64,000 bases of DNA from Candidatus Jordarchaeales archaeon (GTDB taxonomy: Archaea > Asgardarchaeota > Jordiarchaeia > Jordiarchaeales > Freyrarchaeaceae): contig JAWCFL010000006.1 in assembly GCA_038858525.1 (NCBI GenBank), forward strand, positions 3,442-67,441, in the 5' to 3' direction. Below are positions 2,667 to 25,994 of the stretch, piece by piece (the first letter of the stretch is position 1; each line of letters begins with the position of its first letter). The notes beneath the pieces are model-generated. The model saw only the letters and a program-made list of their open reading frames with translations. It was not told the DNA's origin and searched no databases. Made by a program: the position numbers and the translations under genes.

Positions 2667-5174
2667 ATGACTCTTCTTATCTTTGATAAACTGTTTTCAG
2701 AGTTGGGGGCCATTATGTCTGGCGGCAAGATTAAGGAGCCTCGCTGGGACGTTTCTAAGGAGTCTGAAATTTGGGAGCTTTGGCAGAAAGAAAAAACTTA
2801 CCGCTTCAACGAGAACAGTGGGAAACCTTTTTTCACCATAGATAATCCTCCACCATATGTAAGCGGTAGGTGGCATATGGGTGGCGCCGTTCACTATGCG
2901 TCGATCGACTTCATAGCTCGTTTCATGCGCATGAAAGGTTTTGAGGTTCTCTATAAATTTGGACTTGATAGGAACGGGCTCCCCGTAGAGGTTAGCGTCG
3001 AGAAGGAATACAAGATAAAGATGACTGAGACCCCTAGGGAAGTGTTTATCGCTAAGTGTAAGGAGTACCTTGACAGAGTTGGAAATGATATTTTGAACAT
3101 CTGCAAGCTTATGGGGTTCTCTAATAACTCTTTTGAGTGGGATGAAATATACAAAACGGATCAAGATGAATATAGAGCTCTAACTCAAGCGACCTTTATT
3201 GAACTGTGGAGGAAGGGGTATATTTACGAAGATGAGCGTCCAGTGAGCTGGTGTAGCGACTGCCAGACAGTAATCGCCGAGGCTGAAATTGAAAGGCAGG
3301 AGGAAGAAACCAGCCTCTACTACATTAAGTTCAAAGTTAAAGAGACCGGGGAAGACTTAGTCATAGCCACGACTAGACCTGAGCTGATATGCGCGTGCGG
3401 CGCGGTGATAGTCAACCCCGACGACGACCGGTATACTCGTCTTCATGGCTTAACTGCAGTGACTCCCATTTACGGTAAGGAGGTTCCCATAATACCTCAC
3501 CCAGCAGCTAAACCTGAATACGGTACGGGCGTGGTCATGGTTTGCTCTTACGGAGACATGGTTGACCTTAGGCTCTTCAGGGAACTTTCCCTTACACCAA
3601 CATTCGCCATAAACAAGGATGGTTTAATGACCAAAGTTGCTGGAAAATACGCTGGCCTAAGCGTGAAAAATGCTAGGAGCGCGATAGTTGAGGACTTAAA
3701 GCGAATGGGTTTGCTAGTTAAGTCTGAGAAGATAGTTCACAGCCAGCCAATCTGCTGGAGAAGCAAAACCCCCATAGAGTATGTCGCAATGAAGGAGTAT
3801 TATCTAAAAATGCTGGACTTCGTGCCCCAACTCAGAGAGATCGCCGAGAAAGTCGAGTGGCATCCTCCATCGGCTAAGTATCTTTGGCTCAACTGGATTA
3901 ACTCTCTCACCATGGACTGGCCTATTTCAAGAAGGCGCTACTATGGGACGGAAATACCCATATGGTACTGTAAAAAGTGCGGCGCCCCAAATCTTCCTGA
4001 ACCAGGCAAATACTATAAACCTTGGATGGAACAACCTCCCTTCAACAAGTGTGCCAAGTGTGGCGGCTCAGATGGCTTTATCGGGGAGACGCGAACATTT
4101 GACACTTGGGTCGACTCCTCCATATCCCCATTGTTCATTTCTCTATATCCCGGGAATGTTAAAGAAAGCAATGAGTCCTTCTTCAAGAAGCTATCCTCCC
4201 GGCCATACCTCTGCGACCTGCGTCCTCAAGGAAAAGACATAGTGGGCACATGGCTAAACTATACCATGCTGAGGATCCTGCAGATTCTAGATAAGCCCGC
4301 CTTCAAGCATGTTTGGATAAGCGGGCACGTCGTCGATAAGGATGGACGAAAAATGTCCAAGAGCCTCGGAAACATAGTTTACCCCGAACCTGTCGTCGCA
4401 AAGTATGGAGCCGACGCTGTTCGTCTCTATGCCAGCATGATTGCGTCACTCGGTGACGATGTGCGTTTCGATGAGTCCAAGGTTGCTGGGGTAGCGCGTT
4501 TCCTGCAAAAATTATGGAACATAGCTAGGTTTATTTCGAATTTCCCAGAGCCAACAGAGGTTTTCAGCTTAACCGAGACTGATAAATGGATCCTCTCAGA
4601 ACTCAACAAGCTAATCCGGAAAGTCGATGAAAGCTACTCCTCGTTCGACTTTCACCCCGGGACTGTTGCACTTTACAACTTCACGTGGAACGTCTTTGCA
4701 AGCCACTACGTTGAAATGGTGAAGGCTCGCGCTTACAACAGAAACGGCACATTTAGTGAGAGCGAACAGAAAGCTGCACACTGGACGCTTCACTTCTGCC
4801 TAAAGACAATACTAAAGCTCTTAGCCCCAGTAACGCCCTTCATAACTGACGCCATCTGGAGACAACTGTATAGCAGGGAGAGCATACATAAAGAAAAATT
4901 CCCTGAAGCAGACCCATCAATGATACTCGAAGAAGACTACACGCCGCTAATCCTAGAAACAAACTCTGTTCTTTGGAAAGTTAAGAAGAATGCTGGCCTA
5001 TCACTTAAAGTTCCACTTAAAGCAGTGATCCTTCCTAAAAAGCTGGAAGCGTTCGCCATGGATCTGCGCGAAATGCATAACATCGAGGAACTACAATTCT
5101 CGGATGAGCCTAAAGGAAACGGATTCGAAGAATTTCAAGCGGACGGAAAAAGGATTCTTGTAGCGGTAAACTAG
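2667..5174 (+). CDS. valS: Class I aminoacyl-tRNA synthetase, most likely valyl-tRNA synthetase. The true start may be the Met at 2715.
   Basis: The PPPYVSG-WHMGG motif is HIGH-like but degenerate. The GLDRNGLPVE motif is characteristic of Val/Ile-type enzymes. A CP1 editing segment TTRPELICACGAVIVNPDDDRY resembles the ValRS ATTRPET...NP motif. KMSKSLGN is present. The length of 835 aa fits archaeal ValRS and not LeuRS or IleRS. Confidence 0.6.
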   Translation: MTLLIFDKLFSELGAIMSGGKIKEPRWDVSKESEIWELWQKEKTYRFNENSGKPFFTIDNPPPYVSGRWHMGGAVHYASIDFIARFMRMKGFEVLYKFGLDRNGLPVEVSVEKEYKIKMTETPREVFIAKCKEYLDRVGNDILNICKLMGFSNNSFEWDEIYKTDQDEYRALTQATFIELWRKGYIYEDERPVSWCSDCQTVIAEAEIERQEEETSLYYIKFKVKETGEDLVIATTRPELICACGAVIVNPDDDRYTRLHGLTAVTPIYGKEVPIIPHPAAKPEYGTGVVMVCSYGDMVDLRLFRELSLTPTFAINKDGLMTKVAGKYAGLSVKNARSAIVEDLKRMGLLVKSEKIVHSQPICWRSKTPIEYVAMKEYYLKMLDFVPQLREIAEKVEWHPPSAKYLWLNWINSLTMDWPISRRRYYGTEIPIWYCKKCGAPNLPEPGKYYKPWMEQPPFNKCAKCGGSDGFIGETRTFDTWVDSSISPLFISLYPGNVKESNESFFKKLSSRPYLCDLRPQGKDIVGTWLNYTMLRILQILDKPAFKHVWISGHVVDKDGRKMSKSLGNIVYPEPVVAKYGADAVRLYASMIASLGDDVRFDESKVAGVARFLQKLWNIARFISNFPEPTEVFSLTETDKWILSELNKLIRKVDESYSSFDFHPGTVALYNFTWNVFASHYVEMVKARAYNRNGTFSESEQKAAHWTLHFCLKTILKLLAPVTPFITDAIWRQLYSRESIHKEKFPEADPSMILEEDYTPLILETNSVLWKVKKNAGLSLKVPLKAVILPKKLEAFAMDLREMHNIEELQFSDEPKGNGFEEFQADGKRILVAVN

Positions 5175-6927: not shown

Positions 6928-7443
6928 CTAAAGGGAAGTAGTGAATTTCTCCTCTCCCAGATATAAAAGCACCTCTTTTTTCCTTTCAGCGAAGTCCTCC
7001 TCGGCGTAAGCCTCCAAAACTCTTCCTATAAAGACCATGTGGTCTCCAGCCTCAATGGCCTTCTCGACTTTACACTCAAGGTGAGCAAGACACTCTGCGA
7101 TTATAGGTGCCCGCACTCTCCTAGCCGAGGCCGCTGTCAACTTTGCCTCCTTAAATTTGTCGAAGTCCCTGCCCGATATTGTTCCGCAGAGAAGGACCTC
7201 GCTAACCAGCTTTGAGGACGGTACGTTAACCACGAATTCTCCGCTCTCCATAATCATCCTGTAAGACTCTCTCCGAAAGCCGATACTCACCGCCAACATG
7301 GGGGGATCGAAGCTAACAGGCATAGACCAGGCAAGCGTAATTATGTTCCTTTTTCCCTTAGAATCAACACAGCTAACCAGCACGACAGGTCTTGGATATA
7401 ACAATGAATGTGCTTCATCCACATTAACCTTCAAACCCACCAC
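6928..7443 (-). CDS. Flavin reductase-like FMN-binding protein
   Basis: 171 aa. The RPVVLVS...NIITLAWSMPVSFDPP...VVNVP pattern is typical of flavin reductase domain (split-barrel) proteins. Confidence 0.5.
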   Translation of the reverse strand: MVGLKVNVDEAHSLLYPRPVVLVSCVDSKGKRNIITLAWSMPVSFDPPMLAVSIGFRRESYRMIMESGEFVVNVPSSKLVSEVLLCGTISGRDFDKFKEAKLTAASARRVRAPIIAECLAHLECKVEKAIEAGDHMVFIGRVLEAYAEEDFAERKKEVLLYLGEEKFTTSL

Positions 7444-7461
7444 TCCATCATAATGTTAGTG

Positions 7462-8565
7462 TTACCTTGTTACTTCAGCGCTTCTTACTTTTTCATAAAT
7501 TTCTCTCGCTCTCTTGTCCTCCTCAAAGTGTCTTCTTATTGGATCTATTATGTCGTCAAGATATCTTGCTGCCGCCTCCTTAAGGTCTAGAGGGTGTATT
7601 TCTCCTTTGACGTATGACTCTTTTAGCTCGCTGTAGGATGTGAAAGTCAGGGCGTCTTTGCCCTTTCTCTCAACTGTTACTTCCCTGCGTTTTTCAAAGA
7701 TTATCTTCTCCATTATGTCCATTATTGGGTTTCCTTCCACCACCCTTGGGGGGCAGAAGGCGTTACGAATTTTCCTCCATATATCTTCCCTTGAATCGTG
7801 AATGAAAATAGCTGAGTCAGGCACGCTTTTACTCATCTTAGAGCTTATCATGAAATCTATTTTTTCATCCTCATCAAATCCTCCTATTCCTTCTCCTACC
7901 TTGAGTCCTAAGAGAAGCGGGTGATGAATGGCTATGGGCTTGCGCCTCCCAAATAGCGGGGCAACCTCCCTAGCAAGCATGTTAACCTTCCTTTGGTCTA
8001 TCCCCAGCTGGCATATGTCCACTTCGAGCTGGAAGATGTCGGCACACTGCATTACAGGATAGAACAGGAAAGCTGTTGGGTTCGAGGCGCTTTCCTTCCT
8101 TCCAGCGATGGTAAGAGCTCTCATAGTTCTGCTCACGGTCACGTTCTTAGCTATCATCATAACTTTCTTCCAGTATTCGGGGTCGTCAAAGTGCTCTTTG
8201 TGCCACACAACATCCACCTTGCTGAAGTCTACGCCAGCAGCCTTCCAAACTTCTATGAAGTATTTTCCAGCATCCCTTATTCGCTCTATGTCCCCTCCAA
8301 GTTTATTATTAATCCACGCAAAACTATCAGCTAATAATAGTTTAAATCTTATACCCGTCTTCATTAATTTCTCAAGTATGATAGGCCTATAAACTGCAAC
8401 AGGAAGATGCGCTAGCCCTGACGGCTCAAAACCATCATAAGCTACAGGCTTCTCATTAACTTCAAAAAGCTCTCTCAACTCTTCCTCAGTTACTATCTCT
8501 GCGCTACAACTTCTAACCAGCTGTATCTTTTCCTCAATATCCATATTGCTCCCTCTTAAGAGCAT
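7462..8565 (-). CDS. tyrS: Class Ic aminoacyl-tRNA synthetase, tyrosyl-tRNA synthetase type (TrpRS not excluded)
   Basis: GFEPSGLAHL is a HIGH-region variant of the archaeal TyrRS GFEPSG motif. Blocks YPVMQCADIF, GIDQRKVNMLAREV and CPPRVVEGNPIMDI align with Methanocaldococcus TyrRS. KMSKS is present. 367 aa. Confidence 0.6.
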   Translation of the reverse strand: MLLRGSNMDIEEKIQLVRSCSAEIVTEEELRELFEVNEKPVAYDGFEPSGLAHLPVAVYRPIILEKLMKTGIRFKLLLADSFAWINNKLGGDIERIRDAGKYFIEVWKAAGVDFSKVDVVWHKEHFDDPEYWKKVMMIAKNVTVSRTMRALTIAGRKESASNPTAFLFYPVMQCADIFQLEVDICQLGIDQRKVNMLAREVAPLFGRRKPIAIHHPLLLGLKVGEGIGGFDEDEKIDFMISSKMSKSVPDSAIFIHDSREDIWRKIRNAFCPPRVVEGNPIMDIMEKIIFEKRREVTVERKGKDALTFTSYSELKESYVKGEIHPLDLKEAAARYLDDIIDPIRRHFEEDKRAREIYEKVRSAEVTR

Positions 8566-8613
8566 ACAGGTTTTAAACCATCAAAATAATTTTTCCCCAT
8601 CCTAACTTTTAAA

Positions 8614-9723
8614 TTGAAGTGGGGGAGAAAGCATTGCGGTGGTCGGATGGACTACTGGTGGGACTTATCCGTCATACATTGGATTCAAGGATCCTTTTGG
8701 ACTCCTTGGGGCTTCATGAAAGCACCTTCATTGCTGGACGGCGTAATGTGGGTGGTAACGCAGTTCGGGACTGAAACAGTATGGATACTGGTGGTCTCCG
8801 CCCTTTTCTGGCTTGGATACCGAAAGGAAAGCCTCCTATTAGGTGCCCTGGTACTCCTCGAAGCCATGATAAACTTCTGGCTGAAGTACGCCATTTTTAG
8901 ACTTAGACCAACAAGGTATGAAGCATTTATCTTCTACGAGTCATCGGACCCGTCGATGCCGAGTGGGCACGCTCAGCTTGCGGCAACAGCCAGTTTTTAC
9001 ACGTCTCGGGTAATCTGTTTAAACTTAGAATCAACCAGTAATGTGGCGAGAGAAAGCGGCAGAAGCTGGTTTAGCAAAAAGTGTTTCGCCTTATACTCGT
9101 TAGCTCTCACGCTGACAGTTCTCGTATCACTAAGCAGAATTTACTTAGGCGTTCACTGGCCTACTGATGTGATCGCCGGTAGCGCCATTGGCTTCACAAT
9201 ATTCATAGTCTACTCCCTTACGGCTGAGAAGCTGTGGGGTATAGTTGCACCCCGACTCCCAACGAACACATTATGCAAATGTATTCTAGTAGCGTTGCTT
9301 GGAGTTGCGATCGGCGTATTTACGCCTTCTTCTTGGGGAATAGGCTGGTATGCTGGAGGCTTCTTCACAGGCTTCTTCACAGGTGCAGTGCTCGAAACCG
9401 ATGCTGTAAAGCTTGAAAAACCCATGGTGCTGAGGAAAGCTCTTGGAAGATTAATTATTGGTGGCCTAGTTCTCTTCGTTCTTGCGGTGGTAGCTGACAA
9501 AGTTTCCTCAGGAGCACATGCCCTACTCGACTTAGCAGAGCTACTGTTGAAGTTTTTCGTCATTCCAAGCTCACTTTCACCTTGGACAGAAGTAATAACC
9601 AGCATCATCCTAGAACCATACATGAACATATTCTTCAGTGTAGTGCAGTTCCCTCTCTATATCCTAATTGGGCTATGGATCAGCTTTATAGCACCATACA
9701 TGTTCAAGGCTTTCCAGCTCTAA
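8614..9723 (+). CDS. PAP2-family (type 2 phosphatidic acid phosphatase) integral membrane protein
   Basis: It carries the KxxxxxxRP motif (KYAIFRLRP), PSGHA, and SRIYLGVHWPTDV, which are the three PAP2 signature motifs. There are multiple TM helices. Confidence 0.6.
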   Translation: MKWGRKHCGGRMDYWWDLSVIHWIQGSFWTPWGFMKAPSLLDGVMWVVTQFGTETVWILVVSALFWLGYRKESLLLGALVLLEAMINFWLKYAIFRLRPTRYEAFIFYESSDPSMPSGHAQLAATASFYTSRVICLNLESTSNVARESGRSWFSKKCFALYSLALTLTVLVSLSRIYLGVHWPTDVIAGSAIGFTIFIVYSLTAEKLWGIVAPRLPTNTLCKCILVALLGVAIGVFTPSSWGIGWYAGGFFTGFFTGAVLETDAVKLEKPMVLRKALGRLIIGGLVLFVLAVVADKVSSGAHALLDLAELLLKFFVIPSSLSPWTEVITSIILEPYMNIFFSVVQFPLYILIGLWISFIAPYMFKAFQL

Positions 9724-9728
9724 GGCCT

Positions 9729-11192
9729 TCAGAGACGGCCTTCTTCCTTCCTCTTTTTATGTTTGGCGTATTGAACCATTTTTGATAGGACGCTTGCCGC
9801 TGTTTCTATCGTGGGGTAGACAACTACTCCCTTCTCCGCCGCCTTAGCGACGACCTCCATGTCTGTGGTGGCGGTGACTGCGACCAAAGGCTTACCATAC
9901 TTGCTAATCAGCTTGACTATATATTCCATGCTCTCCTCATCAGCCTTAGCAATCCACTCTTTAACAATATTTTTACCTTCTTTACTATGAGTTTGTCCTC
10001 CGAATGCTCCTGCAAACGCTCCACTACCGACAATAAATCCTAAAGCAGCAACAATGTCGACGTTCAGGTCACCCGCTATTATATCCAAGCAGGATGGCTG
10101 TATGCTTCTATCAAAGACCCCCACAAGATCAACGGGGTTCCCCTTACTCCAGTATGGAGGAAGAAGCATGCTAAGCTTCCTTATGGTGTCATCGCTCAGG
10201 GAGACAACATCTAATCCTGCTTCTTCGAACACGTCTGAGGCGACGACCCCGTATCCTCCCCCCCAAGTCAGTATTCCAACTCTTTTCCCTTTAGGGAGCG
10301 GGAGGTTTACAAAGCTTTTTGCCAAGTCTAGCATTTCATTAACAGTTGTAGCTTGAATAATTCCAGTCTGCTTGAACACCGCCTTCACTATCTCGTTGGG
10401 AGAAATCATCGCTCCACTATGAGATTTGGCAGCTCTAACTCCGGCTTGGGTTCTCCCCGACTTGTAAGCTATGACAGGCTTCTTCTCGGAAACCTCCTCA
10501 GCAACCCTCATAAACTTCCTTCCACTTCTCACTCCCTCAAGATAAAGCAGGATAACCTTAACATTTGGGTCAGAGCCAAAGTAGGCAAGGTACTCGTAAC
10601 ATTCTATGTCCGCTTCGTTCCCGCTGCTCACAAACTTGTTGAATCCAACCCCGACCGTAGAGCCAAATCCTAAAAGATTCGTCCCGATGTTACCGCTTTG
10701 ACTTATCAGAGCCACCTCGCCTTTACGCGGTGAGACTGGCGGCATTAAAGCGCAAAGATTAACCGAAGCACTATAAACCCCCATAGTGTTCGGCCCAACT
10801 AGAAGTAAGCCGCCCTTCCTCGCCCTTCTCACACTCTCCTTTTCGAGTTCCTCACCCTCTTTTCCCGTCTCCCTGAAACCACCAGCTATTGCTATTACCG
10901 CCTTGACTCCTGCCTCGGCGCACTCCTCAATGTGCTGAGGAACAGCCTCCGCTGGTCTAGCTATCACAGCTAGGTCAACTTCATCGTTCACGCTCATGAC
11001 GTTAGGGTACGCTTTGATGCCGAGAATCTTCTCCTCACTTGGGTTCACAGGGTAAATTTTTCCTCTAAAACCATAAGAGACTATATTCGCGAGAATAATG
11101 CATCCCCACTTCGTGGGGTTATTCGAAGCACCTATAACAGCAACGGAACGCGGCTCAAAAACAGGCTTAAGATCTCTGCTTTCAGAGTCCAC
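9729..11192 (-). CDS. ADP-forming acetyl-CoA synthetase alpha-like protein with CoA-binding and succinyl-CoA-synthetase-like domains (paralog 1)
   Basis: It has an N-terminal CoA-binding Rossmann (VAVIGASNNPTKWG), internal GNIG and a phospho-His-loop-like GHAG region. 487 aa. No beta/ATP-grasp subunit is adjacent. Confidence 0.6.
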   Translation of the reverse strand: MDSESRDLKPVFEPRSVAVIGASNNPTKWGCIILANIVSYGFRGKIYPVNPSEEKILGIKAYPNVMSVNDEVDLAVIARPAEAVPQHIEECAEAGVKAVIAIAGGFRETGKEGEELEKESVRRARKGGLLLVGPNTMGVYSASVNLCALMPPVSPRKGEVALISQSGNIGTNLLGFGSTVGVGFNKFVSSGNEADIECYEYLAYFGSDPNVKVILLYLEGVRSGRKFMRVAEEVSEKKPVIAYKSGRTQAGVRAAKSHSGAMISPNEIVKAVFKQTGIIQATTVNEMLDLAKSFVNLPLPKGKRVGILTWGGGYGVVASDVFEEAGLDVVSLSDDTIRKLSMLLPPYWSKGNPVDLVGVFDRSIQPSCLDIIAGDLNVDIVAALGFIVGSGAFAGAFGGQTHSKEGKNIVKEWIAKADEESMEYIVKLISKYGKPLVAVTATTDMEVVAKAAEKGVVVYPTIETAASVLSKMVQYAKHKKRKEEGRL

Positions 11193-11373: not shown

Positions 11374-11766
11374 ATGAGCTTTGGGATGCAAATGAGATTT
11401 CCATGCGAAATTGTAATCTGGTATCTTCTACCAGCCATAAGGTCTGCTCTTGCTAAGGAGCTTGCAGGCCTAGGACTCTCACAGAAGGAGATCTCAGAGA
11501 AGCTTGGGATCTCCGAAGCCGCCGTATCTCAGTACATGAAAGGTAAGCGAGGTGGAAAAATCGATTTCTCCACCGAACTCAACGAAATGGTGCGTGAAGC
11601 CGCAAGGCACATAGCGTCAAGCGTCTCCATTATAGACGTCTACCGAAAAACCTGTAATTTGTGCTTATCTCTTAGAAAAAAGGCTCTCATGTGCGACTTA
11701 CACAGGAAGATGGACAACGTTCCGGAAGACTGCAATCTCTGCCCCTGCCTATCAGAAGACCTGTAA
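11374..11766 (+). CDS. HTH transcriptional regulator with a C-terminal Cys cluster
   Basis: LSQKEISEKLGISEAAVSQYMKG is an HTH. The C-terminus CNLCLSLRKKALMCDLHRK...CNLCPC is Cys-rich. Confidence 0.4.
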   Translation: MSFGMQMRFPCEIVIWYLLPAIRSALAKELAGLGLSQKEISEKLGISEAAVSQYMKGKRGGKIDFSTELNEMVREAARHIASSVSIIDVYRKTCNLCLSLRKKALMCDLHRKMDNVPEDCNLCPCLSEDL

Positions 11767-11901
11767 AACTTCTTCCAGCAACTTAACGCGAGAAGATACT
11801 TTTTTCTTAGAAAGATGTTCTCTGTTTAGCGAGCCTACCTCACATTTCTGAGCGTTTTATGTAAACAAAACCTAAAATTTTTTATTCACTTTCTCTTCTC
11901 T

Positions 11902-12657
11902 ATGAGTGTATCTCCTCTGGGGGGTTCGTTGTTGAGAAGTGGCAAGAACAGTCCTCCTAACCTTCTCCTAAGATTAGGTGCAAACATATTTTTAGCCGGG
12001 GCACTATCCATACCTTTCTCTGTGTTATCCGCCATCCTAGCGTACTACTTTTTAGTTGAATTACTCCGGTTACCCTTAGCTGTGGTTATTGGTCTCGCCC
12101 CACTATACTACTTGGTTGCAAAGTGGTGTTTCAAACTCTTCTTCTTAGTTTTGGCTAGAGCCCAACTGAAGCCGGTTGAGGAGGGCCACTTTGAGGCTGA
12201 CTTCGGAAACAAGAACGTTAGAAACTGGCTGATAAACATTTCACTCGTAGACGCAGTCAAGTACTTCGTGGGAAACCCACCACTAGGACAAACATTTCTA
12301 AGACCACCCCTCTACAGGTTTCTCGGAGCAAAACTTGGTAAAGCCACCTCCCTAGACGACGTCACTGATCCATACCTTTTAGAGATGGAGGACGGCGCAG
12401 TCGCCGGCGGCCGCTCCTTCATAGTAACGCACATTTCAAGGAACGGCGGGCTTTACCTCAAAAAAGTGAAGATAGGCCGTAATGCACTTGTTGGGATATG
12501 CTCAACGATAATGCCTGGGGTCGAGATTGGTGAGGGAGCTGTGGTGGCGGCAAACTCCCTTATTCCGATGGATACAAAGATACCGCCGTACACCCTGTGG
12601 TCTGGTATTCCCGCAAAACAAGTTAAATCGTTGAAAGGTGAGGTAGAAGACCGATAG
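11902..12657 (+). CDS. Membrane-anchored hexapeptide-repeat (LbH) acyltransferase
   Basis: The N-terminal TM helices are followed by hexapeptide repeats (IGRNALVGICSTIMPGVEIGEGAVVAANSLI). Confidence 0.45.
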   Translation: MSVSPLGGSLLRSGKNSPPNLLLRLGANIFLAGALSIPFSVLSAILAYYFLVELLRLPLAVVIGLAPLYYLVAKWCFKLFFLVLARAQLKPVEEGHFEADFGNKNVRNWLINISLVDAVKYFVGNPPLGQTFLRPPLYRFLGAKLGKATSLDDVTDPYLLEMEDGAVAGGRSFIVTHISRNGGLYLKKVKIGRNALVGICSTIMPGVEIGEGAVVAANSLIPMDTKIPPYTLWSGIPAKQVKSLKGEVEDR

Positions 12658-13353: not shown

Positions 13354-13882
13354 GTCTTTAGGCTTAAAGGCCCCTCACCATGCTGCCCAAATCACCTTTT
13401 CTCTTTTTCGTTGTCTCTCTGTTGCTTCGGTTTATTTTTACGCTACCCTGTTATTAAGCAGAGGTGTCGTCGCTATTATGCATATCGATAAACTTCTCTA
13501 ATAGGTAAACGCGTCCGGCAAAGTGGCACCCTATCTGGTTAAGAATTATTGCTTGTAACCACACTACTGAAGTCTTGCCGTCATTACGAGCCATAACCCC
13601 CGAAACACGTGATGTCGGACTGCGCACCGTAAGCCTCAGCTAAAACCTTTACCCCTCGAATTAGGCTCCTCCCGCAGTAGTTGAATTAATAGTTGAGTCT
13701 GCCTCCTTAAGATTCTCTAAATCGTCATTTGACTCGAACTTCAAAAGGTAGCATCTTAAAACTTAAACTCATTAGTACCTCTCAATTAATTTTCCCTGTT
13801 TTTAGGCAACAAAAGTTAATTGCAACATGAAAAATTTATTTTTCTTTTTGTCTTTTTATTACTGCGCTGGAGGAGGGTGTAA

Positions 13883-16174
13883 TTGCTGGTTGTTGGAAGC
13901 CATGCTTTCACGCGTCTCTCTTCCCTTTTGGGCATTCTCTTCTCCTTCTCTGCGGTTCTCGGCATGCGCTTTCAAGTCGAGTCGCTGACTCCCCTCGTCC
14001 TCTCGTCACTCATTTCACCTCTCTCCCTCCTACTCTTAGTTCTCTCCGTATTCTTTTTTTCGTTCCCTATAGTGGTCGATGGCCGAAACAACATTAACTA
14101 TATTATCCCTGCAGGAACACAAGTCCTCTTGTCTTACATGGTAACTTTGTCGGGATGCACTGTGCTTCTGAGAATTCAGAGTTTCTCCTTGACAGTTTGG
14201 GATGGATACACGAGACAGATTATGTTGATTCTGCCCGCATTCTTCTACTTCGTAAGCTGGCTTCGCTCCCTTAAAGGGTTCTCCTCTATAAAAGAATATC
14301 TTCCATTAGCAGTAGCGGCTTCCTCTCTCTTCTTCTTATCGCTCCATGAACAATCTCCAATATTAATTCCGGGCGCTGAATCATACCTTTTTGTTTTTCC
14401 AACAGGCACTACCTCCTCCACTATGGTTGCCTCCCTCCTAGTTTTCGCCTGCGGCCTAATAGGCATAACCCCCCCAACGAGAAGTTTAACGGGAAAAATC
14501 GCTACCGCTTTAACATTCGCCCCAACAATTTCTCTCTCAGTCTCCGAATCGTTGGCCGCCGAGAAAGCAGCCTCAATTTTAGGAGTTTACGACAACCTAA
14601 TCCACTCCGCTTTCCCTCTACACTTCAACTTTTTCATCTGCCTTTCGCTCACCGCGCTCCTAGGAGGAGTAGCCCTCTCTTCAAACAGAAGAACAAAGCA
14701 GTGCGCTCTCCTCTCCTGCACAGCCTTCGTACTCCTTTACCCAACATTATACCGGCTACTATCCCAACCTCTTAAACCCGTAGCAGTCGAGCCAGCCCCC
14801 CTCACGTGGCTCACCGTAATCTTAGCCGCCCTAATACTCCTCCACCCTACCCGACTACCCAAGGTTCTTCCAGCATTACTCCTTGTCCCCATTCTCCTCT
14901 CTTCCTTACCCATATACGCTTCAGCATCTCCATCCCCCTTAATTCCGTTAAACAACACGATAAGTGTAGATGACCGAATAGATCCAGCCATACTAGAAAT
15001 GGAAGGAACACCGGGGCCAATACATGTAATACTACGTTTTTCATCATTAACAGACGACACACTAGAAAAGCTGAACAAGACGCCCTACTTTGAAATATCC
15101 TATCATGAAAGCAAGCCTGCAGTCTACAGGGGATACGTCAACTTAGTCTACGGTGTACTTAACGCATCAACAGACAACTGGAAGGATCTAGTTAGAAAAC
15201 TGGTGAGCAACTTCAATTTAATATACGTCCTCCTTAATAGGAACCCGTCAGAAACACCGAGCTTCAACTCCGACCCCGCAGTCTATTCTGTTGACGCGGA
15301 TGTGCTTCACTCTTTAAACATAACTGGGAGAGGGGTGACGGTCGCAGTCATAGACTCAGGAATCAACGACGCAGACCCAGAAATAACAGGGAAAAACGAA
15401 GGACGCATAATATACCAGGTGAACTTCATAACAAGAATGGAAGGCGACCCGGCTTTAGTTGGCGACTTGACTCCAACAGACGGAAAGTACCATGGAACAT
15501 TTGTTGCGAGAACTATAGCTGGAGTTAGGGGGATAGCGCCCCACGCCAACCTCATAGACCTCAAAGTCCAGCTAGAAATGGGAGAAATGTACTACGATAC
15601 GAGCCTACGAATAATTGAAGCTATAGAGTGGTGCATCAAAAATAAAGACAGGTTCAATATATCTGTAATCAACCTAAGCATGGGTAACAGAGAAGGAACA
15701 GGTGGCACGATAGATAAAGCAGTAAACAAGGCAGTCTTAGCCGGAATAACTGTGGTCGCCGCAGCAGGAACATGGCTTAACCCAACTGAAATCCAAATTA
15801 ACTCTATATTTACACCCGGAACAGCATCCCTCGCCGTCACTGTTGGGGCAACGCAGAGTTACGATAATGATGTTTGGGCCTACTTGCCGGCAAGCGCCAT
15901 AGGGCCAGGATGGACGGCGCCCAAACCAGACCTGGTGGCACCAGGACCATACACTAGCGGCTCAGCGCCCATCGTCGCAGGAGTATCTGCCCTTTTGCAT
16001 CAAGCAGCCGCCGAACTCAACATACCTCAAAGCGTCAAAGGTCTTATAGTGAAACAAGCTTTAATACAAGGCGCAATCCGCCACGATCTTGGAACACCAG
16101 GGTTTGACCCCCTCTATGGACACGGTAAAGTTAACGCTCTTTCATCATACTTAACATTAAAGAATTTTTCATAG
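13883..16174 (+). CDS. Membrane-embedded subtilisin-like serine protease (S8): an N-terminal ~10-TM domain, an I9-like propeptide and an S8 catalytic domain (paralog A)
   Basis: The catalytic triad motifs are VAVIDSGIND (Asp), HGTFVA (His) and YTSGSAPIVAG (Ser). The first ~340 aa are strongly hydrophobic with about 10 predicted helices. Confidence 0.75.
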   Translation: MLVVGSHAFTRLSSLLGILFSFSAVLGMRFQVESLTPLVLSSLISPLSLLLLVLSVFFFSFPIVVDGRNNINYIIPAGTQVLLSYMVTLSGCTVLLRIQSFSLTVWDGYTRQIMLILPAFFYFVSWLRSLKGFSSIKEYLPLAVAASSLFFLSLHEQSPILIPGAESYLFVFPTGTTSSTMVASLLVFACGLIGITPPTRSLTGKIATALTFAPTISLSVSESLAAEKAASILGVYDNLIHSAFPLHFNFFICLSLTALLGGVALSSNRRTKQCALLSCTAFVLLYPTLYRLLSQPLKPVAVEPAPLTWLTVILAALILLHPTRLPKVLPALLLVPILLSSLPIYASASPSPLIPLNNTISVDDRIDPAILEMEGTPGPIHVILRFSSLTDDTLEKLNKTPYFEISYHESKPAVYRGYVNLVYGVLNASTDNWKDLVRKLVSNFNLIYVLLNRNPSETPSFNSDPAVYSVDADVLHSLNITGRGVTVAVIDSGINDADPEITGKNEGRIIYQVNFITRMEGDPALVGDLTPTDGKYHGTFVARTIAGVRGIAPHANLIDLKVQLEMGEMYYDTSLRIIEAIEWCIKNKDRFNISVINLSMGNREGTGGTIDKAVNKAVLAGITVVAAAGTWLNPTEIQINSIFTPGTASLAVTVGATQSYDNDVWAYLPASAIGPGWTAPKPDLVAPGPYTSGSAPIVAGVSALLHQAAAELNIPQSVKGLIVKQALIQGAIRHDLGTPGFDPLYGHGKVNALSSYLTLKNFS
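15284..15573 (+). repeat. 290-bp tract 100% identical to 17775..18064 (Asp-His region of the S8 domain). It is a gene-conversion-like tract between the tandem protease paralogs.
   Basis: Direct comparison of the sequence. The identical 85-aa antisense ORFs at 15307..15564 and 17798..18055 in the track confirm the identity. Confidence 0.9.
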
Positions 16175-16334
16175 ACCACTTATCTCCTTTTATTTAGGTT
16201 CCTCCCTTTGAAAGCTTAACTTTGCCTCAGTCAAATCCATTATAAGTTGAAAAGTTATCAATGAATATTAGTTAATCATCGGTAATCCGCTCCCCTCTAT
16301 ACTAGGATGGGGGGGAGTTGGGGGGGTCTGGAGC

Positions 16335-18668
16335 GTGTATCTGTTACTTATTAAAAGTAAGCTTAAAAGCGCTCTTCAAAATTCCGCATGCAGGATGTTT
16401 TTAATTCTTTCAGGCTGGTCTCTTGCCGTCTTTTCTATGTTGAGCGTAAGCGTTCGCGTTGAGTGTTTTGCCCCTCCAGTCTTAGTTCTATCTGCTTTGC
16501 CGTTTTCCCTCTTTTATCTTGTCGCCTCGGCAGTCTTACTATCTCTCCTTGTGGCTTTTGGAAATCGATCAAACTTGGATTATGTGCTGTGCTCAGGCAC
16601 GCAATTGGCTACATTGTACTTTGTGGCTTTTTTCGATGCTACGACGCTGATCCGCATAGGATCCTTGTCTCTCACCATATACGACGAACACACGCAGCAA
16701 TTACTCCTCGTTCTTCCTGCACTAATCTATTTTTCTTCTTGGCTTCGAGCTACAAGAAAATTTTCTAACCTAAAAGAATGTCTTCCTACTGCTTTATCAT
16801 CCCTCCTTCTCTTAGCTCTATACCTTTACAGTCCTCAATCCTTAACTTTAATCTGGTCCGACTTATGTCTAACTAAAATGCCTAGAATTACTCCTCCATC
16901 TGTCGCTACTGGGGCACTATTCGTCCTCGCTTCAACCTTCGTCGGCCTAAGACGTTATCAAAAAGCCTCAAAGGAGAAGCTGTCCGCCGTCTTGACTCTA
17001 ATGCCTGCGTTCCTCATAGCCCTATCCGGTTCGATTGCCGCTAAAACGACTGCATACATTATTGGCTATTACGACCACATTCTTCACTCCCTTTTTCCTC
17101 TACATTTCAACCTTTTTGTGTTTCTTTCATTCGTCTCATTCATGGGGGGCTTAGCTGTTCTTTCCACAAAAAGAGCAGAACTAGCAGCATCGATTTTTTG
17201 TATTCTCTTCGCCATTTCATATCCAGTCCTGCATAGAGTGATGACCAAGTTACTTATTCCGGTCTCTTTTGAGCCCGCCCCCCTTGTATGGCTCCCGGTG
17301 GCATTAATCTCCCTAATTCTCTTTCGCCCACATTCCTTCATTAAGAGCTCTTTTTTAGCAATAGCACTAGTCGCCTTAGTAGCCCAACCTCTAGTAACAA
17401 CTTATCCGTCAGAAATAGTGAATCCCTTTATGCTGTCTGCTAAGGAGGCTGAAGTCCGCGATAAAATAGACCCATCTATTATAAATATGGAGCAACCGCC
17501 AGAAGCACTGCCGGTAATACTACGCTTTCCTCACCCAGTAAATGAAGATGTGCTCTCTGAGCTGAATATGCTCCCATACTTCAAAATCTCAAGACACAAT
17601 GAAACACCTGCAATTTACAGTTCAAACGTCGGCTTCGTTTACGGAGTAATAAACACGTCGCTCTGTGACTGGCGGGAAGCTTCTAAATTCCTTGTAGAAA
17701 AATTCGGTCTCAAATACCTCCTCCTGGACAGAGGAATTGATCCGTCACAAATAATTAGCCTTCATCCAATAACTTATTCTGTTGACGCGGATGTGCTTCA
17801 CTCTTTAAACATAACTGGGAGAGGGGTGACGGTCGCAGTCATAGACTCAGGAATCAACGACGCAGACCCAGAAATAACAGGGAAAAACGAAGGACGCATA
17901 ATATACCAGGTGAACTTCATAACAAGAATGGAAGGCGACCCGGCTTTAGTTGGCGACTTGACTCCAACAGACGGAAAGTACCATGGAACATTTGTTGCGA
18001 GAACTATAGCTGGAGTTAGGGGGATAGCGCCCCACGCCAACCTCATAGACCTCAAAGTCCAGCTTGAGACGGGGGAAATGAGTTACGCAGACAGTTTGCG
18101 TGTAGCTGAAGCTATAGAGTGGTGCATAAGAAACAAGGATCGGTTCAATATCTCAGTGATAAACTTAAGTATGGGTAATAGAGAAGGGAGAGATGGAGGA
18201 CTTGTGTGTAAAGCAGTGGAACGAGCTAGCCTAGCAGGAATAATTTTCGTGGCGGCAGCCGGGTCGTATTCAAACCCATCTGAGAGCTATGCTAACCCCG
18301 TTTTTACACCCGGAGTAAGCAAACAAGCGATAGCTGTCGGATCAACGCAAAGCTATGACTGCGACCTTTGGGCCTGTTTCCCCGCAAGTGCTATAGGACC
18401 GGGATGGATCAAGCTTAAGCCGGATCTGGTGGCGCCGGGACCATACACTAGCGGGTCGACGCCTGTAGTTGCAGGCATAGCGGCCCTTCTATGCCAAGCC
18501 GCTGAAGAGCTAAACATACCTCAAAACACTAGACCTATCGCTGTAAAATATGCTTTGCTGCAAGGGGCCGTACAAAACGACTTAGGACTACCCGGGTTTG
18601 ACCCATTCTATGGTTATGGAAAAGCAAATGCTCTTTCATCATATCTAGCGCTAAAGACTCTTACATGA
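16335..18668 (+). CDS. Membrane-embedded subtilisin-like serine protease (S8), paralog B, in tandem with paralog A
   Basis: It has the same architecture and triad motifs as paralog A. The N-terminal membrane domain is divergent and the protease domain is highly similar to that of A. Confidence 0.75.
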   Translation: MYLLLIKSKLKSALQNSACRMFLILSGWSLAVFSMLSVSVRVECFAPPVLVLSALPFSLFYLVASAVLLSLLVAFGNRSNLDYVLCSGTQLATLYFVAFFDATTLIRIGSLSLTIYDEHTQQLLLVLPALIYFSSWLRATRKFSNLKECLPTALSSLLLLALYLYSPQSLTLIWSDLCLTKMPRITPPSVATGALFVLASTFVGLRRYQKASKEKLSAVLTLMPAFLIALSGSIAAKTTAYIIGYYDHILHSLFPLHFNLFVFLSFVSFMGGLAVLSTKRAELAASIFCILFAISYPVLHRVMTKLLIPVSFEPAPLVWLPVALISLILFRPHSFIKSSFLAIALVALVAQPLVTTYPSEIVNPFMLSAKEAEVRDKIDPSIINMEQPPEALPVILRFPHPVNEDVLSELNMLPYFKISRHNETPAIYSSNVGFVYGVINTSLCDWREASKFLVEKFGLKYLLLDRGIDPSQIISLHPITYSVDADVLHSLNITGRGVTVAVIDSGINDADPEITGKNEGRIIYQVNFITRMEGDPALVGDLTPTDGKYHGTFVARTIAGVRGIAPHANLIDLKVQLETGEMSYADSLRVAEAIEWCIRNKDRFNISVINLSMGNREGRDGGLVCKAVERASLAGIIFVAAAGSYSNPSESYANPVFTPGVSKQAIAVGSTQSYDCDLWACFPASAIGPGWIKLKPDLVAPGPYTSGSTPVVAGIAALLCQAAEELNIPQNTRPIAVKYALLQGAVQNDLGLPGFDPFYGYGKANALSSYLALKTLT
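17775..18064 (+). repeat. Second copy of the 290-bp identical tract (see 15284..15573)
   Basis: Direct comparison of the sequence. Confidence 0.9.
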
Positions 18669-18696: not shown

Positions 18697-19392
18697 TTGG
18701 TTAAAGGAGGAAGAATTTTGAGTTATATGAGCGTTATCTTTGGAGGGGGGCGATTTGGATGCGTTGCTGCGGAGTACTTGTTACGCCGTTCCGAGCCGTT
18801 CATAGTGGTTGATGAATATGAAGGTTGTCTCGCGGCAAAAAACCTTCCACTTAAGAAGATCAGCTCGGATGAAGTAGAGCCCATTGATCCCTCGAAAAAT
18901 TACTTCCTGAAAGGAAGCGTGAGGCTCGCTCTGAACTTGATTGAAAAACTTAAACCGAAACTTGTATTTCCTACAGCTCCCATACACGTGGCAGCATCAC
19001 TGGTGGCGGAAAAGTATGGCATGGTAGAATGGGAAGAAGCCATCGAACCTTTAGCGTTGCGTATTCCTTCATCTGTTGTGGTATCCGTGAGCAGAGCGAC
19101 AATAGTAACCTCCTATAACAAAGATGCCATCTGTCAGCCAGCATGTGTGGCACCAGAGGCCTGCCCGATTACAGGCATGAAGAAGCCTTATCCCATGCAT
19201 GAACTCCTAAGAGTAGCGGCTCCTAACGGGATAATACTCAGAAGCTACCAGCTGGAGCCAGGCTTAGGCGCCCTGGACGGCGGCGAGCTACTTGACGCTT
19301 TGAAAGCATGCGGGCGAAGCAACAGAGTAATCATTGGAACAGCATGCGAGTGTCATGGCGTGATCACCGCCCTCAAAAAGCCCGCCTTATAA
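18697..19392 (+). CDS. Rossmann-fold (GGGxxG) protein with Cys-rich segments, function unknown (possibly SirC/TrkA-N-like)
   Basis: VIFGGGRFGCVAAEYLLRR is a dinucleotide-binding motif. CQPACVAPEACP and GTACECHG are Cys clusters. Confidence 0.3.
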   Translation: MVKGGRILSYMSVIFGGGRFGCVAAEYLLRRSEPFIVVDEYEGCLAAKNLPLKKISSDEVEPIDPSKNYFLKGSVRLALNLIEKLKPKLVFPTAPIHVAASLVAEKYGMVEWEEAIEPLALRIPSSVVVSVSRATIVTSYNKDAICQPACVAPEACPITGMKKPYPMHELLRVAAPNGIILRSYQLEPGLGALDGGELLDALKACGRSNRVIIGTACECHGVITALKKPAL

Positions 19393-24527: not shown

Positions 24528-25994
24528 TCATCCGACAGAGGGCAGCCCAGCATAACATAGTCCTCGATTGATCCTTGTCTCGGCCTCGCCTTTAAGCTTA
24601 AGGGCCTTAATCATCTGAACCGCCTCCTCAACGGTGTGGGCGACTGGGACGCCGTTCAGCTCAAACCCCTCGACGATCATTTGGTATTTTTGAACCCAGG
24701 GAACGTAAGCTACAACGGGCTTCTTGTATTTTCTCACTATGTTTGCCGCTCTTCGGCCGAGCTGCATGCTTATGGTTGGTGGATATGGTAACATTAACAA
24801 TATGACCGCTTCGACTTTCTCGTTTTTCATCAAGTACTCCGCTACTTTTTCAACATCATTGTCCACTAAGCTACCTGTTAAGTCTATGGGGTTTCTCAGG
24901 CTTGCTATTGGAGCCGCTGAAGGGTTAAGAAGCCTCCTCATCTCCTCTTGCTCTTCCTCCGTGAATTCCACGAGGTTCAACCCGTACTTCGCGCATAGAT
25001 CAGAACATAGTACTCCATGTCCGCCCGATATGGTGAGGATCGCCACATCCCCCCTCCTTATTGAAGGAAGCCTGAATGAGAGCACCTTGCTGAACGTTAT
25101 AATCTCATACTCGTTTTCAGCCTCTATTATGCCCCATTGCTTGAATGCTGCTGATGCAATGCTGGAAGCCGTCATTACGGAGCCTGTATGGCTGGCGGTT
25201 GCCCGCCTCCCATATTCGCTTTTCCCAGCCTTAAAGACTACGACAGGCTTCTTCTCGAAGCATTCTGCTGCCTTTCTGAGGAACAGCGCTCCTTCTTTCT
25301 CCCTAAACCCTTCAAGGTAAATCGTTATAAGCTTCGTTCTCGGGTCGCTTTTAAAATACTCTAAGAGGACGTTCTCATCTATCACCGCCTTGTTTCCAAC
25401 ATTTATGGCGACCGAGACGCCTATTTTCCTCTCGGCATATTTGCTGAAGAACTGGTCTACTAGCACTCCTCCAGACTGGCTAATGACAGCAACGTTGCCA
25501 GGAGGGGGCGTAACAAGCCTCTCACTTGGAAGGAAGAACGTGTCAACGTAGGGCGGACTGTAAACTCCCACGCAGTTCGGCCCTATCACCGCCATGTCGT
25601 ATTTCTTCGCTATCCTAATAAGCTGATCCTGCCTTTTGACGCCTTCATCCCCAATCTCGGCAAACCCTCCCGAAACCACCACGGCACCCTTAACACCTAC
25701 CTCACCACACTCCTCCAGTATACCATTAACGGCTTCAGCATGCACACAAATAACCACTAAATCTATATTCTTCGGGACGTCCGAAACAGACCTGTAAAGC
25801 TCCCTGTCATCGAGTATTCCACCCCGAGGGTTAACTCCGAAAACTTCTACCTCCATTTCATGGAGGTTCTTTTGATATATCACTGTTCCGGGGCTCAACG
25901 GATTTATTTGCGAAACACCCACAACGCATAGGGTTCTAGGCTGAAAGACCGCCTTCAGATCCAAGTGTTCACCACCTCGAAGCCTAAGCATCAC
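24528..25994 (-). CDS. ADP-forming acetyl-CoA synthetase alpha-like protein with a CoA-binding domain (paralog 2)
   Basis: It shares architecture with 9729..11192 (CoA-binding N-terminus, HTGS phospho-His-like region). 488 aa. Confidence 0.6.
   Translation of the reverse strand: MMLRLRGGEHLDLKAVFQPRTLCVVGVSQINPLSPGTVIYQKNLHEMEVEVFGVNPRGGILDDRELYRSVSDVPKNIDLVVICVHAEAVNGILEECGEVGVKGAVVVSGGFAEIGDEGVKRQDQLIRIAKKYDMAVIGPNCVGVYSPPYVDTFFLPSERLVTPPPGNVAVISQSGGVLVDQFFSKYAERKIGVSVAINVGNKAVIDENVLLEYFKSDPRTKLITIYLEGFREKEGALFLRKAAECFEKKPVVVFKAGKSEYGRRATASHTGSVMTASSIASAAFKQWGIIEAENEYEIITFSKVLSFRLPSIRRGDVAILTISGGHGVLCSDLCAKYGLNLVEFTEEEQEEMRRLLNPSAAPIASLRNPIDLTGSLVDNDVEKVAEYLMKNEKVEAVILLMLPYPPTISMQLGRRAANIVRKYKKPVVAYVPWVQKYQMIVEGFELNGVPVAHTVEEAVQMIKALKLKGEAETRINRGLCYAGLPSVG

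Follow-up and report, generated by a model that had tools for sequence, protein, structure and literature searches.

Within a 64,000-nt stretch of a Candidatus Jordarchaeales genome (GenBank assembly GCA_038858525.1, contig JAWCFL010000006.1; hereafter the window), we analysed two neighbouring genes, A and B, which are intact tandem paralogs; in the protein that each encodes, a prodomain stands between a polytopic membrane domain and an S8 subtilase catalytic domain. The two genes carry an identical DNA tract, and we consider this identity to be probably the result of recurrent ectopic gene conversion within a membrane-integral pro-subtilase pair of Jordarchaeia. An initial annotation, made from the letters of the window, had described the tandem architecture and the strong divergence of the N-terminal halves. 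Both descriptions hold: Pfam Peptidase_S8 is found in the two proteins, their first ~350 aa are hydrophobic, and the membrane domain plus prodomain of gene A and gene B share 37% protein identity. Gene and tract coordinates below are positions in the window.

An identical tract shared by two diverged paralogs

The initial annotation had placed an identical 290-bp stretch at 15284..15573 and 17775..18064, and DNA comparison reproduced it exactly. It is a direct repeat of exactly 290 nt that starts on a codon boundary, at codon 468 of gene A and codon 481 of gene B. Alignment of the two genes around its borders in 30-nt windows showed 37-50% identity in the left flank and 57-87% in the right one. 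The probability of 290 consecutive matches would be ~5e-53 if the background identity of the paralogs is taken as 0.66 and ~8e-29 if it is taken as 0.80, so small that chance identity is excluded. In the codon alignment there were no synonymous differences within the tract, while outside it codons that encode the same amino acid in the two genes differ in roughly half of the cases.

Paralogs are homogenised from the same codon in three genomes

The tandem pair is present in three genomes, namely the window, Ca. Jordarchaeia QC4 (locus L002) and GCA_038889235.1 (locus L008, on a 501-kb contig). Counted from codon 467/468 of the window gene A (Aw), runs identical between the paralogs extend over 290 nt in the window, 149 nt in L002 and 168+86+87 nt in L008, and the left border shared by all three is the Tyr codon at the predicted pro/mature junction. 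In the 123-nt core of the tract, 30 sites differ among genomes yet match between the paralogs of each genome; 21 of these concerted differences fall at third codon positions, and 0 sites differ within any genome. Identity in the core is 100% between paralogs in each of the 3 genomes versus 74-90% between genomes. The proportion of synonymous differences (pS) in the tract shows the same pattern, with within-genome paralog values of 0.014, 0.285 and 0.146 versus 0.64-0.79 elsewhere, and between-genome values (0.54-0.56) that are the same as elsewhere in the gene.

Outside the tract, the genes follow their type. Nucleotide identity in the membrane domain was 58-85% for A-A pairs (100% for the identical A9/Aj), 63-72% for B-B pairs and 47-52% for A-B pairs. 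The gene A membrane domain was 63-74% identical to its orthologs Af, A8, A9, A10 and A3, and that of gene B 65-72% identical to its orthologs Bf and B8 and 47-52% to A-type sequences. In the tract flanks, A-A and B-B pairs were 58-93% identical versus 47-64% for A-B pairs. Since A-type and B-type sequences group separately and paralog synonymous sites are saturated, the duplication is ancient, and these sequence comparisons show it to be older than the split of the three tandem-bearing genomes.

Homogenisation within three genomes from the same codon bears out gene conversion, one of two causes offered in the initial annotation. Its direction (A to B or B to A) could not be assigned, because comparison with L002 shows A-like and B-like states mixed along the window tract. 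We propose that gene conversion by homologous recombination would have acted repeatedly between direct copies 2.5 kb apart. The left border may be set by the loss of homology in the divergent linker before Tyr/Ser-Val-Asp (the slash marks the predicted cut), with heteroduplex extension halted by divergence, and the right border would vary from event to event, giving the runs of 149, 168+86+87 and 290 nt.

Alternative explanations for the identical tract

An identical tract could also be created during assembly or polishing, if the two copies were built from the reads of one paralog, or if a collapsed repeat was duplicated. All sequences considered here are metagenome-assembled, and other assemblies do break or mis-join at the tract. 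The L001 scaffold (JAWCBJ010000024.1, GCA_038863965.1) is identical to the window except for two N gaps and a chimeric end (11441-11932), where gene B upstream sequence and the tract run into gene A downstream sequence, yielding a hybrid protein (P0001) with the N-terminus of gene B and the C-terminus of gene A. In L002, 21 Ns (3678-3698) lie inside the tract of Bf, and in a further hybrid protein, P0004, the prodomain comes from A8 and the catalytic domain from B8. However, a repeat breaks an assembly only if its copies cannot be told apart in the reads over the length of a k-mer, and breaks at the tract therefore argue for a real repeat. Moreover, three genomes that are only 75-90% identical here each show within-genome identity from one shared codon, the L008 pair lies on a contig without Ns and is a mosaic of identical, diverged and identical segments unlike a collapse product, and the window itself contains no Ns. 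Because such breaks are expected of a real repeat and the pattern recurs in three genomes, we regard an artefact in the window as very improbable.

Two further explanations accept the identity as real and differ on what maintains it. Hardly any probability attaches to the tract being kept because its DNA or RNA sequence is itself functional, as a regulatory element, an antisense transcript or a recombination site. The perfect identity, which includes synonymous sites, and an 85-aa antisense open reading frame (ORF) in each tract copy would fit such a function, but the antisense ORF is one sequence read twice, Rfam and tRNA scans of the window gave no matches, and concerted differences fall mostly at third codon positions. 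Above all, synonymous sites in the tract change between genomes as freely as elsewhere in the gene, which rules out mere protein conservation and, for practical purposes, the DNA-level constraint that the initial annotation had named as the other possible cause. Less improbable, though still rather unlikely in our judgement, is that gene conversion is upheld by selection because both proteins need the same catalytic N-lobe, one protease core being carried on two specialised anchors. The homogenised segment is the same in all three tandem genomes and always starts from the pro/mature junction, purifying selection acts on each of the anchors and prodomains, which are old and have diverged, and long-lasting recurrent concerted evolution in prokaryotes has been reported as rare and mostly confined to functionally coupled genes (PMC6053082). 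A neutral account of the conversion fits equally well, though, as no part of the protein is more conserved than the tract (ortholog ratio of nonsynonymous to synonymous rates, dN/dS, 0.05-0.13), so that it retains enough identity to seed recombination, and its left border is where homology ends; in addition, right borders differ among genomes and several lineages hold a single gene only.

A single chimeric gene as a likely crossover product

One gene only is present in L010/L011, L004/L005 and L003, and also in L009, a 96-kb contig in which the gene (7128-9413) stands between the MBL and AF_1314_C genes. The L009 gene corresponds to positions 5938-8241 of L007, a contig of Ca. Jordarchaeum sp. 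LHC_1308, and the two are identical over the 2274 nt covered by the L007 contig end. It is A-like up to ~aa 690, while aa 701-760 are 89% identical to Bf versus 68% to Af; the switch from A to B falls inside a second region in which Af and Bf are 86-95% identical, and the chimera is followed by the downstream neighbour of gene B. From this arrangement, the A::B gene is likely the product of an unequal-crossover deletion in which ~2.4 kb were lost.

Membrane domain and coding frame

The first ~350 aa of the gene A and gene B proteins are strongly hydrophobic, with many Kyte-Doolittle segments, and family-averaged hydropathy resolves 11 hydrophobic cores. Under an 11-helix transmembrane model, Lys plus Arg (K+R) number 9-17 in the predicted cytoplasmic loops versus 2-5 in the outside loops in 10/10 family genes. 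We therefore predict ~11 transmembrane helices with an N-in/C-out topology, close to the ~10 helices proposed in the initial annotation, whose view of membrane-embedded N-terminal domains agrees with our hydropathy analysis. Conserved motifs of this domain would face outside (H-x-x-FPL-H/N-FNLF and EPAPL), and the manual model of gene B places outside an amphipathic helix bearing the YDHILHSLFPLHFN motif. The membrane domain had no Pfam match and no PDB sequence match at E<=10, an hhalign comparison of its N-half with its C-half detected no internal repeat, none of 39 outgroup subtilases had more than one N-terminal hydrophobic segment, and the literature yielded nothing relevant on subtilases that are polytopic or that come from Asgard archaea.

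It is conceivable, but in our view improbable, that the membrane domain is an active partner of the protease, and not a passive anchor. Centred on the two conserved motifs predicted to face outside, it would dock or conduct a substrate that is exported or linked to lipid, and it would exist in two specialised versions, with gene conversion selected to keep a single catalytic core.

Ortholog dN/dS was 0.17-0.30 in the transmembrane domain, 0.10-0.19 in the prodomain and 0.06-0.10 in the catalytic domain, and L008, L009 and L010 contain uninterrupted frames of 760-790 codons. Because dN/dS is low in all domains, the whole frame is a real coding sequence. Gene A begins with TTG, directly preceded by a GGAGG-like, Shine-Dalgarno-like motif, GGAGGAGGG. 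Upstream of this start there is an unusually long non-coding gap of 529 nt (window 13354-13882) with an AT-rich stretch ~30-50 nt upstream; in L008 and L010 the position of the gap is filled by other genes (MR_MLE, M20/M28 peptidase).

Public gene calls for the family are N-terminally shortened in L008 (8001-9662, 553 aa), L009 (8001-9416, 471 aa) and L010 (8001-9224, 407 aa), and spurious 163-aa antisense ORFs have been called inside the membrane-domain region of L009 (7490-7981, minus strand) and L007 (6330-6821, minus strand). The likely cause of the misannotated starts is that the true ones are TTG or GTG.

Catalytic domain and prodomain

Both proteins exceed the threshold of Pfam Peptidase_S8 (PF00082; cutoff 21.8 bits), gene A at aa 482-748 (E 5e-29, 102 bits) and gene B at aa 495-762 (E 8e-32, 111 bits), and the S8 profile is covered in full (positions 1-288). 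The triad appears in the order Asp-His-Ser, within the motifs VIDSG, HGTF and TSGS, and is conserved across all family members, while the Thr preceding the catalytic Ser is conserved in both clades under strong purifying selection. A structure model of the prodomain plus S8 domain matched subtilisins with a Foldseek probability of 1.00 and target-normalised TM-scores of 0.75-0.81. In NCBIfam only sub-threshold matches were obtained, to mycosin, QhpE and other S8 models.

The initial annotation had described a full S8 domain with an intact triad. The triad is indeed intact, but the domain is not complete in every respect. The oxyanion-hole Asn (subtilisin Asn155, in 'AAGN') is replaced in 12/12 family members and is Asn in 39/39 outgroup subtilases, the family having Thr in A-type, Ser in B-type and Gly or Ile in distant-clade proteins. 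Furthermore, a segment found between the APG and TSGS motifs of outgroup subtilases such as Tk-SP is absent from genes A and B.

These two features raise the question of whether the S8 domains are conventional proteases at all, or whether they would perform intramolecular autoprocessing only or serve as low-turnover or binding modules, a reading that we hold to be doubtful. In its favour, together with the universal loss of the Asn and the missing segment before the catalytic Ser, is the behaviour of the PC1/3 oxyanion mutant N309K (Asn to Lys), which still removes its prodomain and has no trans activity (PMC4182778). More generally, replacements of the Thr/Ser/Gly/Ile type are stated to reduce activity in subtilisin and kexin-type mutagenesis (PMC4182778). 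On the other hand, Asp, His, Ser and the Thr before Ser are kept in both clades under strong purifying selection, and PC2, an S8 precedent lacking the canonical oxyanion Asn, is active with a natural Asp at this position (PMC4182778), so that the position tolerates variation, although the PC2 residue is Asp and those found here are Thr, Ser, Gly or Ile.

The prodomain of gene B was modelled with a beta-alpha-beta-beta-alpha-beta order at a predicted local distance difference test score (pLDDT) of 76-96, and the prodomain plus S8 model (51 sequences) reached a pLDDT of 83 overall. Its top Foldseek matches were ProN-Tk-SP (3afg) and unautoprocessed pro-subtilisin E (3whi), and alignments to pro-forms spanned 430-467 columns versus ~310 for mature subtilisins. 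On the model, we call the prodomain I9-like by fold and position and not a member of the I9 family. Of the I9-like propeptide proposed in the initial annotation, the fold order, the position and the Foldseek span lend some support, and membership by sequence has none, with no Pfam or profile match.

The order of the domains, the triad and the fold are plain from these data, and the S8 domain is likely extracytoplasmic. We envisage that the prodomain would chaperone and inhibit the catalytic domain outside the cell, and that autocleavage after the conserved Tyr (Y/SVDADVL) would free a ~32-kDa mature enzyme from the membrane-anchored prodomain, to which it could then stay non-covalently tethered or from which it could be released. 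Presumptive in this scheme are the self-processing step, the place of the cut and anything that the membrane domain would do besides anchoring. For comparison, the pro/mature junction of subtilisin reads AHAY/AQSV, so that the predicted P1 residue is aromatic in both cases.

Coordinates of the tandem genes, their domains and the identical tract in the window
Feature	Position	Strand	Basis
Gene A, A-type membrane-integral pro-subtilase, 763 aa	13883..16174	+	ORF list, Pfam S8
Gene A polytopic membrane domain, ~aa 1-345 (predicted)	13883..14917	+	Hydropathy; K+R 9 inside vs 3 outside
Gene A prodomain, ~aa 360-467, I9-like by fold only	14960..15283	+	Alignment to gene B prodomain model
Gene A S8 catalytic domain, aa 468-763	15284..16171	+	Pfam, alignments
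Identical tract copy 1, 290 nt, from Tyr468 codon of gene A	15284..15573	+	DNA comparison
Gene A Asp491	15353-15355	+	Catalytic triad
Gene A His537	15491-15493	+	Catalytic triad
Gene A Thr630, oxyanion-Asn position	15770-15772	+	
Gene A Ser692	15956-15958	+	Catalytic triad
Gene B, B-type membrane-integral pro-subtilase, 777 aa, GVG start	16335..18668	+	ORF list, Pfam S8
Gene B polytopic membrane domain, ~aa 1-356 (predicted)	16335..17402	+	Hydropathy; K+R 17 inside vs 5 outside
Gene B prodomain, ~aa 372-480	17448..17774	+	Structure model, Foldseek
Gene B S8 catalytic domain	17775..18665	+	Pfam, structure model, Foldseek
Identical tract copy 2, 290 nt, from Tyr481 codon of gene B	17775..18064	+	DNA comparison
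Gene B Asp504	17844-17846	+	Catalytic triad
Gene B His550	17982-17984	+	Catalytic triad
Gene B Ser644, oxyanion-Asn position	18264-18266	+	
Gene B Ser706	18450-18452	+	Catalytic triad
Downstream neighbour gene	18697..19392	+	Orthologs with precomputed PF27252 AF_1314_C match

Observations that weigh against the proposed reading

Several observations weigh against reading this locus as a membrane-integral pro-subtilase pair homogenised by recurrent gene conversion. As to the conversion, the word recurrent refers to n=3 tandem-bearing genomes, all genomes compared are metagenome-assembled, and assembly collapse could in principle have produced the single A::B gene of L009. As to the membrane domain, the topology comes from our own crude Kyte-Doolittle and positive-inside analysis and not from a formal predictor; the full-length AlphaFold model (7-sequence alignment) shows helices at the expected places at a pLDDT <50 in the membrane domain, and therefore no fold can be assigned to it, the Foldseek matches of this model being to S8 only. 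As to the prodomain, neither protein has an Inhibitor_I9 (PF05922) match in Pfam at E<=1, hhalign comparisons of the prodomain profile with the BPN' prosegment and with the N-terminal region of P0057 (a protein with a precomputed I9 match) gave a probability <1%, and the prodomain profile found no match among PDB sequences at E<=10; because these sequence-level tests fail, the label I9-like refers here to nothing more than fold and position. Moreover, the root-mean-square deviation of the Foldseek alignments to pro-forms is ~22 A, which indicates that prodomain and catalytic domain are not oriented to each other as they are in those structures. Finally, judging from the loss of the oxyanion Asn, normal trans-proteolysis by these proteins is uncertain.

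Family range and gene neighbourhood

An exhaustive hidden Markov model search with the N-terminal plus prodomain profile against 1.84 billion representative proteins retrieved 5 proteins in total, and the gene B N-terminal domain matches two database clusters only, both named Candidatus Jordarchaeales or Freyarchaeota. The search with prodomain plus S8 gave ~14 family matches at E<=1e-70, all of them Jordarchaeales/Freyarchaeota or metagenome proteins, followed by a cliff to generic AprX-like subtilases at E ~1e-20. Given the 5 profile matches, this cliff and the 39 outgroups with at most one N-terminal hydrophobic segment, the polytopic domain is clade-specific and is never met without S8. 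By these searches the subtilase family is small and does not extend beyond Jordarchaeia, a group of Asgard archaea. One 69-aa fragment was all that a word-indexed profile search for relatives added, and scans of genome contigs and metagenome contigs found no further tandem locus.

A second, distant clade, ~40% identical to A/B, comprises L003 10001-12550 (P0005), P0015, P0006, P0017 and P0016. The N-terminal membrane part of these proteins is longer and different, and what they have in common with A/B is the last ~four helices, the prodomain and S8. The H-x-x-FPL-H/N-FNLF motif is likewise common to the A/B and P0005 clades.

The window, L002 and L008 share one gene order: acyl-CoA synthetase, HTH, hexapeptide transferase, MBL, A, B, AF_1314_C, GalT and CoA transferase. 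The downstream neighbour starts 29 nt past the gene B stop, and its product carries a GGGRFG motif at the N-terminal end and is rich in Cys at the C-terminal end. In 4 loci this gene keeps its place behind gene B or behind the A::B chimera, L010/L011 do not have it, and its copy in the window (18697..19392) had no Pfam match at E<=0.001. The region is flanked by two paralogous ADP-forming acyl-CoA synthetase-like genes (CoA_binding/Succ_CoA_lig; 9729-11192 and 24528-25994, both on the minus strand), a bracketing arrangement that is also seen in L008 and L009. Across the window and related loci the neighbourhood is metabolic and offers no functional clue, and nothing that points toward surface-protein maturation, the possible role suggested in the initial annotation. 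A role in a defence system was considered and rejected, as the IteS/IetS matches are weak and far below cutoffs and the neighbourhood is metabolic; a PADLOC search of the full proteins gave generic subtilase matches only.

Relation to known systems and significance

The closest known relatives are Tk-SP, a subtilisin-like protease of Thermococcus kodakarensis (3afg, 9ues), and the pro-subtilisins E and BPN', the best matches in sequence (E 2e-22) and in structure (Foldseek E 2e-18), at 24-29% identity. They share with genes A and B the S8 fold, the Asp-His-Ser triad and an N-terminal propeptide directly before the catalytic domain, the beta-alpha-beta-beta-alpha-beta order of which is a model prediction for genes A and B. 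Unlike genes A and B, however, they are secreted by a signal peptide and have no polytopic membrane domain, and they keep two features that genes A and B lack, the Asn of the oxyanion hole and a hairpin ahead of the catalytic Ser, while the C-terminal beta-jelly-roll domain of Tk-SP has no counterpart here. Membrane-held S8 enzymes with a catalytic domain outside the cytoplasm, as predicted for this family, are known from the mycosins of type VII secretion systems (T7SS; MycP, TIGR03921) and from site-1 protease (S1P/SKI-1); mycosin was the top NCBIfam match (E 1e-19 to 1e-21) and S1P was among the PDB matches. In these enzymes the anchor is a single C-terminal helix, whereas in genes A and B it would be an N-terminal domain of ~11 helices. 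Identity with mycosins was rejected, given scores of 70-77 bits versus a cutoff of 278.75, no C-terminal hydrophobic segment and no ESX/T7SS genes nearby.

Classic cases of concerted evolution are tufA/tufB and the archaeal chaperonin paralogs. As in the segmental concerted evolution described for prokaryotes (Wang & Chen 2018, PMC6053082), paralogs of one genome are here more alike than orthologs, synonymous sites included, and this in several lineages. The present case differs in that it concerns a 150-290-nt sub-genic segment of a saturated pair with a fixed left border at a domain junction, and in that it occurs in an Asgard archaeon and in a gene family without an assigned function.

The subtilase pair opens no long-standing question. 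What the analysis defines is a small, Jordarchaeia-restricted subtilase family, as far as the searches reach, whose membrane domain has no detectable relative elsewhere among the 1.84 billion representatives searched, and whose members are labelled in public records just as 'S8 family serine peptidase' and are frequently truncated or split. In practical terms, the tract breaks or chimerises short-read metagenome assemblies, leaving artefactual 'partial' or hybrid proteins in databases. If the membrane domain did turn out to be a working partner of the protease, the family would constitute a new Asgard-specific class of integral-membrane serine proteases and a case of modular evolution enforced by segmental concerted evolution. 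The locus offers a clean multi-genome example of probable sub-genic concerted evolution in an Asgard archaeon, together with a likely crossover-deletion product, and so bears on the activity of homologous recombination in these uncultured relatives of eukaryotes.

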